Part shown: in pieces, positions 1 to 4,707 of the stretch
How positions within the stretch are numbered: the first letter of the stretch is position 1
Layout: each line of letters starts with the position of its first letter
From: a virus
Taxonomy: Duplodnaviria > Heunggongvirae > Uroviricota > Caudoviricetes
DNA: 4,707 nt
Direction: 5' to 3' (one strand)
IMG/VR virus record: IMGVR_UViG_2695420523_000008
Notes under the pieces: model-generated
Told to the model about the DNA's origin: nothing
The model's input: only the letters and a program-made list of their open reading frames with translations
The model's database searches: none
Program-made: the position numbers and the translations under genes

Positions 1-60
1 CATGGTGCTGTCCTGTAAAGCAATGCGCCTGCGTTCCTCAAACTATGGCGCTGATATTGG

Positions 61-366
61 CTATTCATGCTCTTTGACCTTGCGTCGCTGGAGTTCTTCA
101 CGCGCGACGGTGACGAGTTGCCCGATCTCCTCGGCTGCTTTGATGCCGATTTGTTCGACCTTAGCCAGGGCATCCAGTGACGACACAAGGGGATTTTCTC
201 CGCTGCCTTCTGCTTGGCGGCGGGCTATTTCTCCGCGCATGGCGGTTACGATAAATCCGGCATTGCTTTCACCGTCCAGCTTAACGGATTCCATCCCTTG
301 CATAACATCTAGTGGGACTCTGACAGTTGTCAGTTGTGATTTTGCGTTTTTGTTAGCCGTTGCCAT
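61..366 (-). CDS. Putative ribbon-helix-helix (Arc/Mnt/CopG-like) transcriptional repressor, 101 aa
   Basis: ORF 61..366 on minus strand. AGGAG Shine-Dalgarno (complement of 375-379) lies 8 nt upstream of the ATG (complement of 364-366). The segment TTVRVPLDVMQGMESVKLDGESNAGFIVTAMRGEIARR fits the RHH pattern of beta-strand, helix, G-x-S-x-N turn, helix. It is transcribed divergently from the rightward operon and sits next to the palindromic operator-like sites. Family assignment is by motif pattern only. Confidence 0.6.
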   Translation of the reverse strand: MATANKNAKSQLTTVRVPLDVMQGMESVKLDGESNAGFIVTAMRGEIARRQAEGSGENPLVSSLDALAKVEQIGIKAAEEIGQLVTVAREELQRRKVKEHE

Positions 367-387
367 TTCTGAAACTCCTAATCATCG

Positions 388-465
388 GTGTGTTTCAGTA
401 TACACAAAAAAAGAAATACAAAAAGCCTTGACGTGTGTTTCATGCGCTCATAACATGAAACACAC
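388..465. promoter_or_regulatory. Operator-like sites: three copies of GTGTGTTTCA, including a perfect 12-bp inverted repeat
   Basis: GTGTGTTTCATG at 433-444 and its exact reverse complement CATGAAACACAC at 454-465, separated by a 9-bp spacer; a third copy of the half-site GTGTGTTTCA at 388-397, followed by the palindrome GTATAC at 398-403. The sites overlap the -35/-10 of the rightward promoter and the candidate -10 of the leftward promoter. Confidence 0.55.
428..456 (+). promoter_or_regulatory. Sigma70-like promoter for the rightward operon
   Basis: TTGACG at 428-433 (5/6 match to TTGACA), a 17-bp spacer, then TAACAT at 451-456 (4/6 match to TATAAT, with the conserved T1, A2 and T6 present). 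About 100 nt upstream of the first rightward start codon. Predicted from consensus only. Confidence 0.45.
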
Positions 466-493
466 CGAAAGGATTGTTGAAATACAAAGAGCA

Positions 494-527
494 ACGCCCC
501 GCAGTGCTGGGAACACATACGGGGCGT
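494..527 (+). other. Stem-loop in the leader of the rightward operon (8-bp GC-rich stem, 18-nt loop)
   Basis: ACGCCCCG at 494-501 pairs with CGGGGCGT at 520-527. No U-tract follows, so it is not a canonical intrinsic terminator. It lies between the predicted promoter and the first SD/ATG at 546-559. Confidence 0.3.
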
Positions 528-556
528 CTAACCAACAACGTAAACTAGGAGCCGTT

Positions 557-754
557 ATGGTTGCTGTAAATCATATACCACACCTTGTACACACACAAAC
601 GGCCTTTGTGTGGCGTTTTCTGGCACTGAGTGCCGGAGAATCTCAAATCATCCACGTAACCGCCTGGACGGAACGCGAAGCGCGTAGCCGTTGCCCGTCC
701 GGTTGTGTTGCTGTATTCGCTGCAAAAATCCGCCAGGGAGTGAGTCATGCTTAA
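557..754 (+). CDS. Hypothetical small protein, 65 aa (first gene of rightward operon)
   Basis: TAGGAG at 546-551, 5-nt spacer, ATG at 557. This is the in-frame 3' part of the long open frame 2..754, whose 5' part overlaps the better-supported minus-strand gene. Stop TAA at 752-754 overlaps the next start by 8 nt. A resemblance to Icd-like small proteins of P4-type elements is only a vague recollection and is unverified. Confidence 0.4.
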   Translation: MVAVNHIPHLVHTQTAFVWRFLALSAGESQIIHVTAWTEREARSRCPSGCVAVFAAKIRQGVSHA

Positions 755-932
755 AACCTTCCGTGTATTTGCCCGAGCTGTTAACCCAATAGGCCACACA
801 ATTGGTATCGCTCAGAATGTGAAGGCTGTTAATGTTCAGACGGCTATTGCTGCGGTGAGAAGCGAATCATCAGAATATGGCTTATCACAAGTCATTATTT
901 CAGCAGTGTATGAATTAAAAGAGGTGCATTAA
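747..932 (+). CDS. Hypothetical small protein, 61 aa
   Basis: ORF track 747..932. GGGAG at 736-740 precedes ATG 747 by 6 nt. Its stop TAA at 930-932 overlaps the next ATG at 932 (TAATG), indicating translational coupling. Confidence 0.5.
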   Translation: MLKTFRVFARAVNPIGHTIGIAQNVKAVNVQTAIAAVRSESSEYGLSQVIISAVYELKEVH

Positions 933-1123
933 TGCAGGAAATTACATTACACGAAGCCGCTGAACGTGCGCACCAGACAGAAATTATTTGCCGCCTTCTT
1001 GAGGTATACCCGAACAAAATTACAGATGCTGATATATCCGCACTGGCGAGCCTACTGGCGCGTCTTTCGGGAAGTGTCGCTAGTTTTTTGATTGAGGAAG
1101 AAAGTAAGCTGGTGGGGGATTAA
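932..1123 (+). CDS. Hypothetical small protein, 63 aa
   Basis: ORF track 932..1123. GAGGTG at 921-926 with a 5-nt spacer to ATG 932. Its stop TAA at 1121-1123 is immediately followed by the next ATG at 1124. Confidence 0.5.
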   Translation: MQEITLHEAAERAHQTEIICRLLEVYPNKITDADISALASLLARLSGSVASFLIEEESKLVGD

Positions 1124-1345
1124 ATGAATACAGAACGGGAAGTCTTTTTTAAATTGTTAGCATGTGCAGAAAGTTCATTAACTTTAAATAATTCAGCAAA
1201 AGCAATATTAAATATGTGGCTTGATTGCATAAATGACAATGAAGATGCAAATATTGCTTATGGCCTGTTGTCACTTATTGATGAATCAGCAGAAAAACTC
1301 AATGACGCAATAAATAGTGCCCTGCTATCAAATAAGTCGAGTTAA
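1124..1345 (+). CDS. Hypothetical small protein, 73 aa, encoded by a markedly AT-rich segment
   Basis: ORF track 1124..1345. G-rich SD-like GGTGGGGGA at 1111-1119 just upstream. The first 60 nt contain 19 G+C, roughly one-third GC, against about half in flanking genes. Protein is rich in N, L, S, D, E, A. Confidence 0.5.
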   Translation: MNTEREVFFKLLACAESSLTLNNSAKAILNMWLDCINDNEDANIAYGLLSLIDESAEKLNDAINSALLSNKSS

Positions 1346-1362
1346 GTCGAGGAATAAATAAT

Positions 1363-1662
1363 ATGGAAATGAAAAATTCTGGCTTTATTGCCAGCGGCCC
1401 CGCTCGACCTGAATTTATGAACGACGATATTTACCGCGATAAATACGGCGGCACGGTAACGATTAAAGGCGTGGCAGAACGGCGCATCACTTACCGCCGT
1501 GAGGGGTATAGCTATGACTGCGTGATGCCTGTTTATCAGTTCCGGCGTGATTTTTCCCTGGTATATGCCGCACCCCGCAGTAAGCCCATCAGCAGGGAAA
1601 AAGCGTGGGGAAATATCCAGAAAATGAAAACCATGATTAACGGATTCAGAGGTAAAAAATGA
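1363..1662 (+). CDS. Hypothetical protein, 99 aa, translationally coupled to the replication gene
   Basis: ORF track 1363..1662. AGGA at 1350-1353 about 9 nt upstream of ATG 1363. Its stop TGA at 1660-1662 overlaps ATG 1659 of the next gene (ATGA). The antisense ORF 1342..1692 is rejected in its favour. Confidence 0.55.
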   Translation: MEMKNSGFIASGPARPEFMNDDIYRDKYGGTVTIKGVAERRITYRREGYSYDCVMPVYQFRRDFSLVYAAPRSKPISREKAWGNIQKMKTMINGFRGKK

Positions 1663-3413
1663 AACTGGCACCGAACGTAAAACAGCAGTCACGCGGCATA
1701 AAACACAAAGGAACAGAAGTCATTATTTTTGCGGGTAGTGATGCCTGGGCACACGCGAAACAATGGCAGGAACATGATGCGCGTATGGCCGGAGATAATG
1801 AGCCTCCTGTGTGGCTTGGGGAGCAGCAGCTATCCGAACTGGATAATCTGCAAATTGTGCCGGAAGGCCGAAAATCAGCACGCATATACAGGGCCGGATA
1901 TCTTGCGCCTGTAATGATAAAGGCGATTGGTCAGAAGCTGGCGGCAGCAGGCGTACAGGATGCAAATTTTTATCCTGAGGGTATGCACGGCCAGGAGGTG
2001 CAGAACTGGCGCGAATATCTGGCCCGTGAACGCCAGAATCTTTCTGATGGTCTGGTCATTGAGCTTCCGGTAAAGCAAAAGGCGCAACTTTCGCAGATGG
2101 CGGACAGTGAGCGCGTGCAGTTGCTTGCCGATCGCTTTGATGGCGTTTGCGTACATCCTGAAAGTGAAATCGTTCACGTATGGCGCGGCGGGGTATGGTG
2201 TCCGGTCAGCACAATGGAACTTAGCCGCGAAATGGTGGCGATCTATTCAGAGCACAGGGCCACTTTCAGCAAGCGCGTAATCAATAACGCCGTGGAAGCG
2301 TTAAAAGTTATTGCCGAACCAATGGGCGAGCCGTCTGGCGATTTGCTGCCGTTCGCCAATGGTGCGCTTGACCTGAAAACGGGGGAATTTTCCCCGCACA
2401 CGCCGGAGAACTGGATCACCACGCACAACGGCATTGAGTACACGCCACCAGCACCAGGGGAGAACATCCGCGATAACGCGCCAAACTTTCATAAATGGCT
2501 TGAGCACGCAGCCGGAAAAGACCCGCGCAAGATGATGCGTATATGTGCCGCGCTGTACATGATTATGGCGAACCGGTACGACTGGCAGATGTTTATTGAG
2601 GCCACCGGAGACGGCGGGAGCGGTAAAAGTACATTCACACACATAGCCAGCCTTCTGGCAGGGAAACAGAACACGGTAAGCGCTGAAATGACATCGCTTG
2701 ATGATGCTGGTGGACGTGCGCAGGTTGTCGGGAGTCGTCTTATCGTCCTGGCTGACCAGCCGAAATATACAGGCGAAGGAACGGGCATCAAGAAAATCAC
2801 AGGCGGCGACCCCGTGGAAATTAACCCGAAATATGAAAAGCGTTTCACGGCGGTAATCAGGGCGGTGGTGCTGGCGACCAACAACAACCCGATGATATTC
2901 ACCGAACGGGCCGGAGGTGTGGCACGTCGTCGCGTGATTTTCCGTTTCGACAATATCGTCAGTGAGGCCGAAAAAGACAGGGAGCTACCGGAAAAGATTG
3001 CGGCTGAAATCCCCGTTATTATCCGCCGATTGCTGGCGAACTTTACCGACCCTGAGAAGGCACGGGCTTTACTACTGGAACAGCGTGACGGTGATGAAGC
3101 ACTGGCAATAAAGCAACAGACGGATCCGGTTATTGAGTTTTGCCAGTTCCTGAATTTTCTAGAGGAAGCGCGCGGCCTGATGATGGGTGGCGGTGGTGAT
3201 TCAGTGAAGTACACGACCAGGAACAGCCTTTACCGCGTCTATCTGGCGTTTATGGCATACGCGGGCAGGAGCAAACCGCTAAACGTGGCTGAGTTCAGCA
3301 AGGCCATGAAGCCAGCGGCGAAAGTTTACGGGCATGAATATATTACGCGAAAAGTTAAGGGAGTAACGCAGACCAACGCAATTACAACAGACGATTGCGA
3401 CGCGTTTTTATAA
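1659..3413 (+). CDS. Replication initiator with SF3-helicase core (P4 alpha C-terminal / D5-like family), 584 aa
   Basis: Long ORF 1659..3413. Walker A GDGGSGKST at residues 317-325 (nt 2607-2633); Walker B-like LIVLAD at residues 361-366; motif C VVLATNNN at residues 403-410. The roughly 40-residue spacing A to B to C is typical of SF3 helicases. AGAGGT SD lies about 6 nt upstream of the ATG. The N-terminal ~300 aa has no motif I can confidently assign to a primase class. Confidence 0.88.
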   Translation: MKLAPNVKQQSRGIKHKGTEVIIFAGSDAWAHAKQWQEHDARMAGDNEPPVWLGEQQLSELDNLQIVPEGRKSARIYRAGYLAPVMIKAIGQKLAAAGVQDANFYPEGMHGQEVQNWREYLARERQNLSDGLVIELPVKQKAQLSQMADSERVQLLADRFDGVCVHPESEIVHVWRGGVWCPVSTMELSREMVAIYSEHRATFSKRVINNAVEALKVIAEPMGEPSGDLLPFANGALDLKTGEFSPHTPENWITTHNGIEYTPPAPGENIRDNAPNFHKWLEHAAGKDPRKMMRICAALYMIMANRYDWQMFIEATGDGGSGKSTFTHIASLLAGKQNTVSAEMTSLDDAGGRAQVVGSRLIVLADQPKYTGEGTGIKKITGGDPVEINPKYEKRFTAVIRAVVLATNNNPMIFTERAGGVARRRVIFRFDNIVSEAEKDRELPEKIAAEIPVIIRRLLANFTDPEKARALLLEQRDGDEALAIKQQTDPVIEFCQFLNFLEEARGLMMGGGGDSVKYTTRNSLYRVYLAFMAYAGRSKPLNVAEFSKAMKPAAKVYGHEYITRKVKGVTQTNAITTDDCDAFL

Positions 3414-3426
3414 TTTTTTGTAAAAG

Positions 3427-3650
3427 CCATCTACCCCATCTACCTGAACGAAATAAACGCATATTATTCAACATGATAAGTGGGTATAGGGCTAGGTAGA
3501 AGGCTAATAAAAGCTCTCTACCTCTTCTACCTGATTTTATCAGTTTCAGGTAGCAGGGTAGACGGCAGGTAGAGGAGTCAAAAAAGCTATCTACCCGCTG
3601 AAAGCCGCGCCATTACTGACATGATGAGCATTCGGGTAGATGGGTAGAGG
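3427..3650. repeat. Iteron array; candidate origin of replication for the element
   Basis: GGTAG on the top strand at 3495, 3549, 3557, 3568, 3635 and 3643, and CTACC at 3431, 3440, 3518, 3527 and 3591: 11 copies in about 220 bp, where about 0.4 would be expected by chance for one 5-mer on either strand. A perfect tandem 9-mer CCATCTACC x2 at 3427-3444 is mirrored by the inverted pair GGGTAGATGGGTAGAGG at 3634-3650. AT-rich stretches at 3446-3490 and 3504-3513 lie between repeat clusters. Located directly 3' of the helicase gene. Confidence 0.6.
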
Positions 3651-3698
3651 GGGGGAGGCACAACTAAAAACTTTTTAAACGAGGGGGGGTGAAAATAA

Positions 3699-4013
3699 AT
3701 GCGCATACATAAAAATCACTTAACAAACATGCCAGCCGAAAACATGAATCAGGGGCGACAAATGACCAAAATTCGCAGAGACAGAACACAGGCAAAATAT
3801 AAAGCGTTAGACATGACAGAGCTTTCCTTAAAGGTGGCAATCAAAGCGATAGACCACCACACACGGGCAGGATACGCGAAGGAACATCCCGACCTGATAA
3901 GCGCATTCATGACCACAGCAGCGGCAAACTTTGCCACGCTGACAGAACGGGAGATTGCCGAAGCGGAACAGGTGACAACCATCAATGTTAAAACCGGAGA
4001 GCAGACAGCATGA
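3699..4013 (+). CDS. Hypothetical protein, 104 aa (alternative starts possible at 3729, 3744 or 3762)
   Basis: ORF track 3699..4013. A G7 tract at 3683-3689 sits 9-16 nt upstream of ATG 3699 as a possible SD; the internal ATG at 3762 has its own AGGGG SD. Its stop TGA at 4011-4013 overlaps ATG 4010 of the SSB-like gene (ATGA). No recognisable motif. Confidence 0.5.
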   Translation: MRIHKNHLTNMPAENMNQGRQMTKIRRDRTQAKYKALDMTELSLKVAIKAIDHHTRAGYAKEHPDLISAFMTTAAANFATLTEREIAEAEQVTTINVKTGEQTA

Positions 4014-4432
4014 CAGCACAGATAGCGGCTTACGGGCGGCTGGTGGCTGACCCGCAGTTAAAGACCACCAGCAAAGGGACACAAATGGCGATGGCGAGTA
4101 TGGCGGTTCCCCTGCCGTGCAGCCAGGCAGATGACGGAACGGCGACGATGTGGTTATACGTCCTGGCGTTTGGCAGACAGGCCGACGCACTGGCAAAACA
4201 CCACAAAGGCGAACTGGTGAGCGTGGCGGGTAACATGCAGGTAAGCCAGTGGACAGGCCAGAACGGCGAAACGCGGCGGGGCTGGCAGGTTATCGCAGAC
4301 AGCGTAATCAGTGCGCGAACGGCGCGACCGGGCGGCAAAAAAGGCCAGCAGGGGCAGGCCACTGACGCACTGAACAGGGCAAAACAACAGTCGGGGAATG
4401 ATGATCCGTACGGCGATAATATACCGTTTTAA
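4010..4432 (+). CDS. ssb: Single-stranded DNA-binding protein (SSB) paralogue, 140 aa, with host-like C-terminal tip
   Basis: The N-terminal ~110 aa aligns by eye with the OB-fold core of E. coli SSB: GRLVADPQL against GNLGQDPEV, and WLYVLAFGRQADALAKHHKGELVSVAGNMQVSQWTGQNGETRRGWQVIADSV against [52 protein letters not shown]. A short Gly/Gln-rich linker follows, and the C-terminus DDPYGDNIPF matches the acidic D-I-P-F tip of bacterial SSB. Confidence 0.8.
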   Translation: MTAQIAAYGRLVADPQLKTTSKGTQMAMASMAVPLPCSQADDGTATMWLYVLAFGRQADALAKHHKGELVSVAGNMQVSQWTGQNGETRRGWQVIADSVISARTARPGGKKGQQGQATDALNRAKQQSGNDDPYGDNIPF

Positions 4433-4449
4433 ATTCTGCAAACAAAAAG

Positions 4450-4478
4450 ATGCCGGAAAAAAATAGATTTTCCGGCAT
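4450..4478 (-). terminator. Hairpin with perfect 11-bp stem; intrinsic terminator on the minus strand, possibly bidirectional
   Basis: ATGCCGGAAAA at 4450-4460 pairs with TTTTCCGGCAT at 4468-4478 around a 7-nt loop. On the minus strand the hairpin is followed by a U-rich tract (complement of 4438-4449, CUUUUUGUUUG). On the plus strand it is preceded by an A-tract but lacks a downstream U-tract, so it is at best a weak terminator for ssb. Confidence 0.5.
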
Positions 4479-4592
4479 GCTACATAAATCCCGACCAAAG
4501 GAAGTAAATACATTAACACGAATTATCAGCACTGAAGTTGTTACGGCATATTTTATACAGCATTGCACTTGGTTGCATGTATTCGCATAGCA

Positions 4593-4707
4593 GGTAATGA
4601 CTCCAACTTATTGATAGTGTTTTATGTTCAGATAATGCCCGATGACTTTGTCATGCAGCTCCACCGATTTTGAGAACGACAGCGACTTCCGTCCCAGCCG
4701 TGCCAGG
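4593..4707 (-). mobile_element. IS1 insertion sequence, terminal 115 bp including the right inverted repeat; continues beyond the window
   Basis: GGTAATGACTCCAACTTATTGATAGTG from 4593 matches the IS1 terminal inverted repeat as I recall it, and the following sequence through 4707 matches the IS1 insB-proximal end. Recognised from memory of the IS1 sequence, not searched. Confidence 0.88.
4608..4707 (-). CDS. insB: IS1 transposase InsB, 3' end (partial; start lies outside the window)
   Basis: Minus-strand translation of 4706..4608 gives [32 protein letters not shown] followed by a stop (TAA, complement of 4608-4610), 15 nt inside the IS1 end. Absent from the ORF track because no start codon lies within the window. 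Confidence 0.8.

Follow-up and report, generated by a model that had tools for sequence, protein, structure and literature searches.

ORF73, the 73-aa reading frame at positions 1124-1345 of the window (the whole 4,707-nt stretch of DNA analysed here), is a rare, unusually AT-rich allele of a small-protein family that occupies one position, the slot, in phage-inducible chromosomal islands (PICIs). Taken as a whole, the best explanation is a real PICI slot allele that was swapped as a cassette and encodes a putative protein-binding modulator, a reading that we regard as reasonably probable. For the identity and the evolutionary history of ORF73 our confidence is high.

The island and its early operon

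The window is the early/replication module of a PICI of the EcCICFT073 type. A Megablast comparison with 5,426 complete E. coli genomes found region 1-4593 in 55 of them. In one complete copy of the island (L001, NZ_CP098192), about 10.9 kb lie between the halves of a lambda-family portal gene in a lambdoid prophage, in the order integrase, AlpA, Bro-N, window genes, lambda-E-like capsid, lambda-D-like decoration protein, second AlpA-like HTH and Nu1-like. The start of this copy, outside the window, encodes a Phage_integrase domain with Arm-DNA-bind_3, followed by Phage_AlpA (E 5e-14). Lysis and tail genes were absent from it, and its packaging module was limited to the lambda E-like, lambda D-like and Nu1-like (C-terminal half) genes. 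Several traits of a Gram-negative PICI were found (integrase with alpA, pri-rep with iterons, a size of ~10-15 kb and a small packaging module), the architecture being that described for the EcCICFT073 type (PMC6092414). Because the island DNA is homologous to CFT073's own island, the relationship to EcCICFT073 is confirmed. In the L001 copy the portal gene is interrupted at Pfam position ~239 of 354, with the island on the same strand, and complete copies match the helper-embedded variant (HE-PICI), members of which integrate into late genes of prophages (PMC10111431). Helper-phage-dependent induction and transfer have been shown experimentally only for EcCICFT073 and one helper-embedded PICI (PMC6092414, PMC10111431).

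The features of the window referred to below are:

61-366, minus strand: YlcI/YnfO-like gene, divergent from the plus-strand operon
428-456, plus strand: sigma-70-like site TTGACG-17-TAACAT, a weak candidate for the early-operon promoter (consensus scan)
557-754, plus strand: Icd-like host cell-division inhibitor gene, the first of the operon (NCBIfam phage_ICD_like, E 1.2e-17; RefSeq annotation)
747-932, plus strand: orf61, small basic hypothetical protein (phrog_3672), in the conserved block that travels with ORF73
932-1123, plus strand: orf63, small acidic hypothetical protein (phrog_1478), its stop codon adjoining the ORF73 start
1111-1119, plus strand: Shine-Dalgarno-like GGTGGGGGA within the end of orf63, 5 nt before the ORF73 ATG (read from the sequence)
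1119-1389, no strand: GC trough (GC 0.306, maximum-likelihood segmentation), coincident with the divergence island at ~1086-1345
1124-1345, plus strand: ORF73 (WP_001091146.1), 73 aa from ATG to TAA, the AT-rich allele of the PICI slot family (phrog_2196)
1349-1353, plus strand: GAGGA Shine-Dalgarno of the rgdR-like gene, the right recombination boundary (homology restart)
1363-1662, plus strand: DUF4222 gene, RgdR orthologue (ECs1581/c1493; Pfam DUF4222, E 4.9e-23)
1659-3413, plus strand: primase-helicase with D5_N, DUF5906 and Pox_D5, the PICI pri-rep gene (domain matches)
3421-3651, no strand: replication origin iterons GGTAGA/TCTACC in both orientations, directly downstream of pri

A small ORF, an SSB gene and an IS1 end make up the right part of the window.

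The earlier note had spoken of a coupled operon, and the junctions read from the sequence bear this out: icd and orf61 overlap by 8 nt, orf61 and orf63 share TAATG, the orf63 stop is joined to the ORF73 ATG (TAAATG), and the DUF4222 and primase genes overlap by ATGA. ORF73 is separated from DUF4222 by a 17-nt spacer that contains GAGGA. In a simple consensus scan of the plus strand, the sole sigma-70-like site in 300-1800 was that at 428-456, with none in 457-1800; this candidate is weak, because the promoter scan found 2 sites where 3.5 were expected by chance. No terminator-like plus-strand site was found after 1345. At E <= 1, an Rfam search of the whole window was empty, so that the idea of a C4/CI-like immunity RNA before the Icd-like gene, modelled on P1 and P4, was rejected as well. 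The interior of ORF73 held one 13-nt imperfect inverted repeat only, which we took as chance in AT-rich DNA.

At ~60 loci with the ORF73 type, it was observed that the block orf61-orf63-ORF73-DUF4222 always occurs together at 96% identity or higher. The flanks of the block vary (icd and ylcI to the left; primase, ori and ssb to the right), being ~85-88% identical or unalignable.

The slot family, its composition and its boundaries

ORF73 was intact and single-copy in 130 of the 5,426 complete E. coli genomes, at 99% identity or higher in 125 of these. Synonymous and nonsynonymous changes within the ORF73 type stood at 4:1, 2:1 and 2:0, which are tiny counts, and dN/dS was 0.14-0.19 within the 77-aa and 80-aa allele types described below. 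These values show that ORF73 is a genuine protein-coding gene under purifying selection.

The protein belongs to phrog_2196 (PHROGs, E 1e-28), a family without annotated function. Its homologues were recognised by inspecting the same position in related islands. The O157:H7 and TUM1886 islands carry an 80-aa protein that is 33% identical to ORF73 (phmmer 2e-9), a 77-aa protein occurs in CFT073, Shigella and strain H19 (phmmer 1e-5 to 6e-3), and P393-F10 carries a frameshifted copy of the slot gene. An exhaustive single-sequence HMMER search with ORF73 returned only its own cluster and three low-complexity repeat proteins; the family profile recovered 581 proteins. Among the 120 of these that were listed, the organism was E. 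coli or Shigella throughout (one uncultured Escherichia), and the protein names went no further than "hypothetical" or "prophage protein". The slot family therefore looks restricted to Escherichia/Shigella PICIs. As possible paralogues, the small-ORF families nearby (orf63, 'MRDDRFN' and 'MCNKTT') were rejected (hhalign probability <1%).

Between Icd and DUF4222 lie one to five small genes in a variable array, the last position of which is the slot, 17 nt upstream of rgdR in the window and 5-6 nt upstream in other islands. Slot genes in most relatives are homologous and encode 69-86 aa; examples are CFT073, O157:H7 and Shigella. In a set of 38 diverse DUF4222 loci taken from IMG/VR, the family filled the slot at 24, with 69-, 75- and 86-aa types among them. 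The remaining slots of the 38 loci held an unrelated 66-aa family (~10 loci) or a fourth family (2 loci), and no slot ORF of at least 40 aa was detected at three of the 38. The family comprises at least six deeply diverged allelic types. Their frequencies in the complete E. coli genomes were as follows:

77-aa allele: 813 of 5,426
80-aa allele: ~153 of 5,426
ORF73 allele: 130 of 5,426
DUF4222 module: 1,562 of 5,426

With the alleles summed, the family is widespread, being present in at least ~1,100 of the 5,426 genomes.

The base composition of ORF73 had been put at about one-third GC against near one-half in the neighbouring genes, and calculation upheld this. GC was 0.320 in ORF73 (GC1 0.39, GC2 0.34, GC3 0.23) versus 0.469 in orf63, 0.480 in DUF4222 and 0.530 in the primase gene (0.495 in the whole window), and only 1.1% of 222-nt windows were equally GC-poor. 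The best two-state segmentation of 557-3413 returned the trough at 1119-1389 (GC 0.306 vs 0.516, log-likelihood gain 22). Of the 17 genes in the complete island, none has a lower GC than ORF73; the next lowest value was 0.414, and the island mean 0.473. The codon-usage calculation that had been proposed alongside also gave an atypical result: from its own amino acids and the codon usage of the island, ORF73 would be expected to have a GC of 0.416, compared with 0.324 observed (z = -4.7, a value that none of 5,000 simulations reached). Amino-acid composition and codon choice contributed about equally to the deficit. The product is acidic and rich in Asn and Leu, as had also been claimed (pI 4.2; Leu, Asn, Ala and Ser abundant).

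[quoted passage not shown] Since all slot genes are AT-biased, part of the low GC of ORF73 is a position effect, for which H-NS binding, an unstructured leader or an internal rgdR start are possible causes. The low GC would then be the sum of AT-rich amino acids, AT-biased codons and this effect common to slot genes. The AT-biased codons would also fit an origin in an AT-richer gene pool; neither a donor of AT-rich lineage nor intermediate alleles were found in the genome, IMG/VR and metagenome collections.

Identity to the O157:H7 and TUM1886 islands changed along the window as follows:

546 to ~1025: 85-100%
1026-1085: 72%
1086-1345: 35-57%
from ~1386: 70-97%

In all comparisons with other islands, homology sets in again at 1349-1357, where the DUF4222 gene has its Shine-Dalgarno, and the left edge of the divergence island lies in the last ~40-90 nt of orf63. 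Between allele types dS was saturated and dN was ~0.85, compared with a dS of 0-0.02 in flanking orf61, and two 80-aa alleles were 1.8 apart in dS inside near-identical flanks. Intermediates of the ORF73 type were absent from HMMER, IMG/VR and metagenome scans, which gave only copies of 97% identity or higher. Judged from these alignments, arrival of ORF73 by homologous cassette replacement is shown, since the divergence is confined to ORF73 and the flanks are near-identical; the breakpoints are in the 3' end of orf63 and at the ribosome-binding site of rgdR. The saturated dS within near-identical flanks points to old, discrete alleles that have recombined between backbones at gene boundaries.

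Proposed function and alternatives

An AlphaFold2 model, made from a 20-sequence family alignment with three allele types only, predicted an antiparallel two-helix hairpin with helices at residues 3-35 and 39-72 (mean pLDDT 92, pTM 0.72). Across 12 divergent alleles, only heptad-like hydrophobic positions and an acidic turn were conserved, and no conserved polar or catalytic residues were seen in the slot proteins. This combination of an absent catalytic signature, a heptad-like pattern and an acidic turn suggests that a binder is most likely. The early operon, ORF73 included, would be switched on by AlpA upon helper-phage induction, and ORF73 is read through and translationally coupled. Its hairpin would most likely bind another protein, probably as a dimer or a four-helix bundle, and the partner may itself be variable: a helper-phage factor, a host factor or the adjacent basic RgdR. 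Put as a mechanism, a non-enzymatic coiled-coil binder that modulates a variable helper or host partner, or RgdR, in the early phase is a tentative proposal, which we hold as possible and not as probable.

Database searches with ORF73 gave nothing significant in Pfam, NCBIfam, PADLOC or PDB sequences. Foldseek against PDB and BFVD returned generic hairpins only, without a match at E <= 0.001, and tblastn against 50,697 phage genomes found no ORF73 match. Anti-defence or DNA-mimic proteins of the Ocr/ArdA kind were looked for in the Pfam, NCBIfam, PDB-sequence and Foldseek results, and none matched. A resemblance to the H-NS N-terminal domain/H-NST or to Hha was rejected (hhalign probability 0.1-0.3%, with approximate reference sequences). 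In the literature, no paper assigns a function to ORF73 or its homologues, and in the published EcCICFT073 work the phage-interference tests were limited to genes downstream of ori, with no role given to the small genes that precede the primase.

The neighbour of the slot offers one candidate partner. RgdR (ECs1581; c1493 in CFT073) is a 99-aa basic, non-specific DNA binder that activates LEE1/type III secretion and represses motility, and it has been described in all E. coli PICIs analysed (PMC3378721, PMC6092414, PMC10877973). The DUF4222 protein of the window (~99 aa, basic, pI 10.0) carries the RgdR-family domain. The RGD motif at residues 20-22 of RgdR, which is required for T3S activation (PMC3378721), reads NDD in the window copy and NGD in the L014 variant, so the motif itself was not found. 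Flockhart et al. reported that sequences directly upstream of ecs1581 differ among O157 lineages (PMC3378721), and the region that diverges there is the ORF73-family slot.

The acidic hairpin could accordingly be pictured as binding the adjacent basic RgdR, as a chaperone or anti-regulator that tunes LEE/T3SS, motility or satellite functions. The slot gene always lies 5-17 nt upstream of rgdR, the two products have opposite charges (pI 4.2 vs 10.0), RgdR has been proposed to be a cofactor acting through protein contacts (PMC3378721), and the divergence between O157 lineages falls directly upstream of ecs1581. However, slot allele and RgdR N-terminal type did not co-vary in the few loci compared, about a third of the rgdR loci held an unrelated slot gene or none detected, and cloned rgdR alone complements the deletion (PMC3378721). 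The lack of co-variation, together with the retention of rgdR-pri beside other slot families, makes an obligate partnership with either RgdR or the replicase unlikely, and we consider the RgdR-partner reading on the whole unlikely. Similarly small weight is given to a bolder form of the binder proposal, in which the slot hairpins would be allele-specific specificity factors, each allele recognising a different partner variant, and the AT bias of the slot would add H-NS-type control over rgdR-pri. If this were true, the slot allele would set which helper the satellite exploits, or the strength of virulence and motility rewiring.

The earlier note had taken ORF73 for a separately acquired cargo gene, a moron, with a product that could be a small inhibitor or anti-defence protein. 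One part of this stood: a history separate from that of the flanks is evident in the drop of identity at 1086-1345 and in the atypical codons. In its full form, the proposal is that ORF73 was acquired independently from an AT-rich donor, has a small acidic inhibitor as its product and stands outside the core biology of the satellite. The compositional anomaly does exceed what amino-acid content accounts for, the divergence boundaries are sharp, the protein is small and acidic, and the slot is variable, with the family missing from some islands. The moron part itself was not upheld, as the consensus scans gave no flanking plus-strand promoter or terminator-like site, the gene is translationally coupled, and a homologous gene fills the slot of most relatives. 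The lack of an own promoter and terminator, combined with the coupling, indicates that ORF73 is not a classical moron, and because the slot holds homologues in most relatives, the event was an allelic replacement and not an insertion. Presence or absence of the ORF in otherwise syntenic islands had been suggested as a check; relatives were found to hold a homologous or an alternative slot gene, and not an empty site. Composition is as expected of a moron, but the structural evidence (promoter, terminator, presence/absence) does not support one. Given further that neither defence models nor characterised proteins were matched, and that no phage-genome match or donor was found, we regard independently acquired anti-defence cargo as quite unlikely.

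A more different possibility is that the AT-rich DNA or RNA itself is selected, as an H-NS-bound silencer, an internal rgdR promoter or an unstructured leader, with the peptide secondary. All slot genes are AT-biased in their codons and the other neighbours are unbiased except for orf61 (z -2.4), a pattern that such selection would give, and rgdR phenotypes exist in uninduced cells (PMC3378721). Against this, dN/dS is well below 1, so the protein is under selection; the predicted fold is confident and the heptad pattern is conserved; Rfam gave no match; and consensus scans of three islands for an internal promoter that would drive rgdR found no consistent promoter-like site inside the slot genes. 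Selection on the nucleic acid in place of the protein is judged very unlikely. The position-specific AT bias is in any case a small, testable oddity.

A replication accessory that aids the primase-helicase, perhaps with its loading or with recognition of the origin, would suit a gene that shares a coupled operon with pri-rep and precedes it by two genes, but is hardly credible. The family accompanies three kinds of replicase (D5_N primase, DUF927 and RepA helicase), and one kind of replicase is found with different slot alleles. Within the ORF73 type, primase and ori differ between loci (88% identity or missing), in contrast to ORF73 itself at 98-100%, and some islands with intact pri lack the family.

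The preferred reading thus remains the putative protein-binding modulator, carried by a cassette-swapped slot allele. A slot binder with discrete alleles that recombination shuffles would be a reasonable candidate specificity or modulation factor. The neighbour of the family in PICIs, rgdR, is already known to regulate type III secretion and motility.

Comparison with known systems

The closest counterparts of ORF73 are the slot genes of two well-known islands. In EcCICFT073, the 77-aa gene (WP_001204962.1) lies directly upstream of c1493/rgdR in the AlpA-dependent operon, the same position as ORF73, and the 80-aa gene (WP_000794515.1) of the O157:H7 O-island 51/CP-933C has the same position also; by adjacency, these are presumably c1492 and z1841, respectively. 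Like ORF73, both alleles are acidic, of similar length, predicted to form a helix-turn-helix hairpin and GC-poor compared to their neighbours. They differ from it in sequence, with only 20-33% identity, and in GC (0.32 in ORF73 vs 0.39-0.40). The turn of ORF73 is 4 residues shorter (DNE in place of DNERDxx), and ORF73 lacks their C-terminal HTGE tail, which overlaps the rgdR Shine-Dalgarno. ORF73 is also rarer than the 77-aa allele (130 vs 813 genomes).

AlpA and Pri-Rep of E. coli PICIs occur as discrete allelic variants (Fillol-Salom et al. 2018, PMC6092414). They resemble the ORF73 family in having few discrete, deeply diverged alleles that are conserved in position and shuffled among backbones by recombination. 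AlpA and Pri-Rep, however, perform known functions that induction and transfer cannot do without, whereas unrelated small genes can take the place of the ORF73 family. Phage morons, for example lambda bor and lom, are autonomous transcription units that share with ORF73 the form of a compositionally deviant small gene between conserved genes; ORF73 differs in lacking its own promoter and terminator, in not being a presence/absence insertion and in being coupled within an early operon.

Satellite P4 has a small early-operon protein, epsilon, encoded upstream of the alpha primase, which binds a helper protein and acts as the anti-repressor of helper P2, and its early operon also starts with a host-killing or division-inhibiting gene. 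The likeness to ORF73, a small protein upstream of the primase in a satellite early operon, is a functional analogy only: there is no sequence relationship, and the best PHROG of ORF73 is an unannotated family. In contrast to P4, PICIs are induced by their helper and do not induce it. The predicted fold of ORF73 is similar to Rop-like and other antiparallel two-helix hairpins (Foldseek TM 0.6-0.9), but sequence identity was 5-18% with none at E <= 0.001, and the fold is too simple to imply function.

Nothing points to a new kind of system, and ORF73 is a fairly ordinary mosaic feature of modest significance. What had been annotated as a "hypothetical protein" is now placed in context, as the most AT-rich allele of an unstudied small-protein family: ORF73 is a rare, newly placed member of an uncharacterised family in a well-known class of phage satellites.

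Composition and 3' ends of the slot genes

Slot composition was surveyed in the window, L005-L013 and L115-L155, where the slot is the position directly upstream of the rgdR (DUF4222) gene and the primase-helicase gene. All of its occupants, which belong to at least three unrelated families, were GC-poor (0.32-0.43) with AT-biased codon choice, and the adjoining genes, orf61 excepted, did not have this pattern. This compositional bias is specific to the position. Across families with no relation to each other, most slot genes encode proteins with the C-terminal sequence ...HTGE or ...TGK, and the last codons of these genes contain the Shine-Dalgarno sequence of rgdR (e.g. L007 3495-3506). The window occupant, ORF73, differs in that its stop and the rgdR ATG are separated by a 17-nt spacer, which contains the rgdR Shine-Dalgarno sequence.

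The DUF4222 gene of the window (1363-1662) is orthologous to rgdR, whose product regulates T3SS and motility. Residues 20-22 of its product are NDD, versus the RGD motif in RgdR. Mutation of R20 to N in RgdR lowered T3S activation (PMC3378721).

Early operon, replicase and origin

Window 592-612; L005 (O157:H7 island) 2693-2713: terminator-like hairpin and T-run, CACACAAACGGCCTTTGTGTG GCGTTTTCTG (terminator scan)
Window 1659-1780; L005 from 3758; related loci L006 from 3745 and L008 from 3811: replicases with the N-terminus MKLAPNVK...IIFAGSDAW... (sequence similarity)
Window 3421-3651: replication origin downstream of the primase, iterons in both orientations (repeat content)

The hairpin, which falls in the 5' part of the Icd-like ORF and is kept in the O157:H7 island, may act as an attenuator for the early operon. 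No C4/CI-like RNA was found by Rfam in the whole window at E ≤ 1.

Three replicase types, a D5_N primase of 584 aa, a DUF927 protein of 710 aa and a RepA-type helicase of ~470 aa, have a similar N-terminus, and this similarity points to a shared N-terminal module joined to replicase engines of different kinds. In all three types the DUF4222 gene is always directly before the replicase, with an ATGA overlap. The origin contains multiple GGTAGA/TCTACC iterons in repeat units of 21-29 nt, and GC dips locally to about 0.39-0.41.

IS1 and the island integration site

Window 4594-4707: IS1 end, terminal ~114 nt (genome matches)
L001 (complete island, NZ_CP098192) 8562-9395 and 20280-21062: portal-gene halves flanking the island (gene content)

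By megablast against 5,426 complete E. coli genomes, only NZ_CP119441 (O121) matched through the IS1 end, and all other matching genomes covered 1-4593; the window copy therefore has an IS1 insertion that separates ssb from the capsid gene of the island.

The 14-nt motif TGTGTATTGCAA(A/T)(T/G) occurs in L001 as three copies just upstream of int and one near the opposite end, which are probably integrase arm sites. The L001 island lies within a portal gene of the lambda family, in the same orientation as this gene, which belongs to a DLP12-like lambdoid prophage. This is the arrangement described as the "helper-embedded PICI" configuration (PMC10111431).
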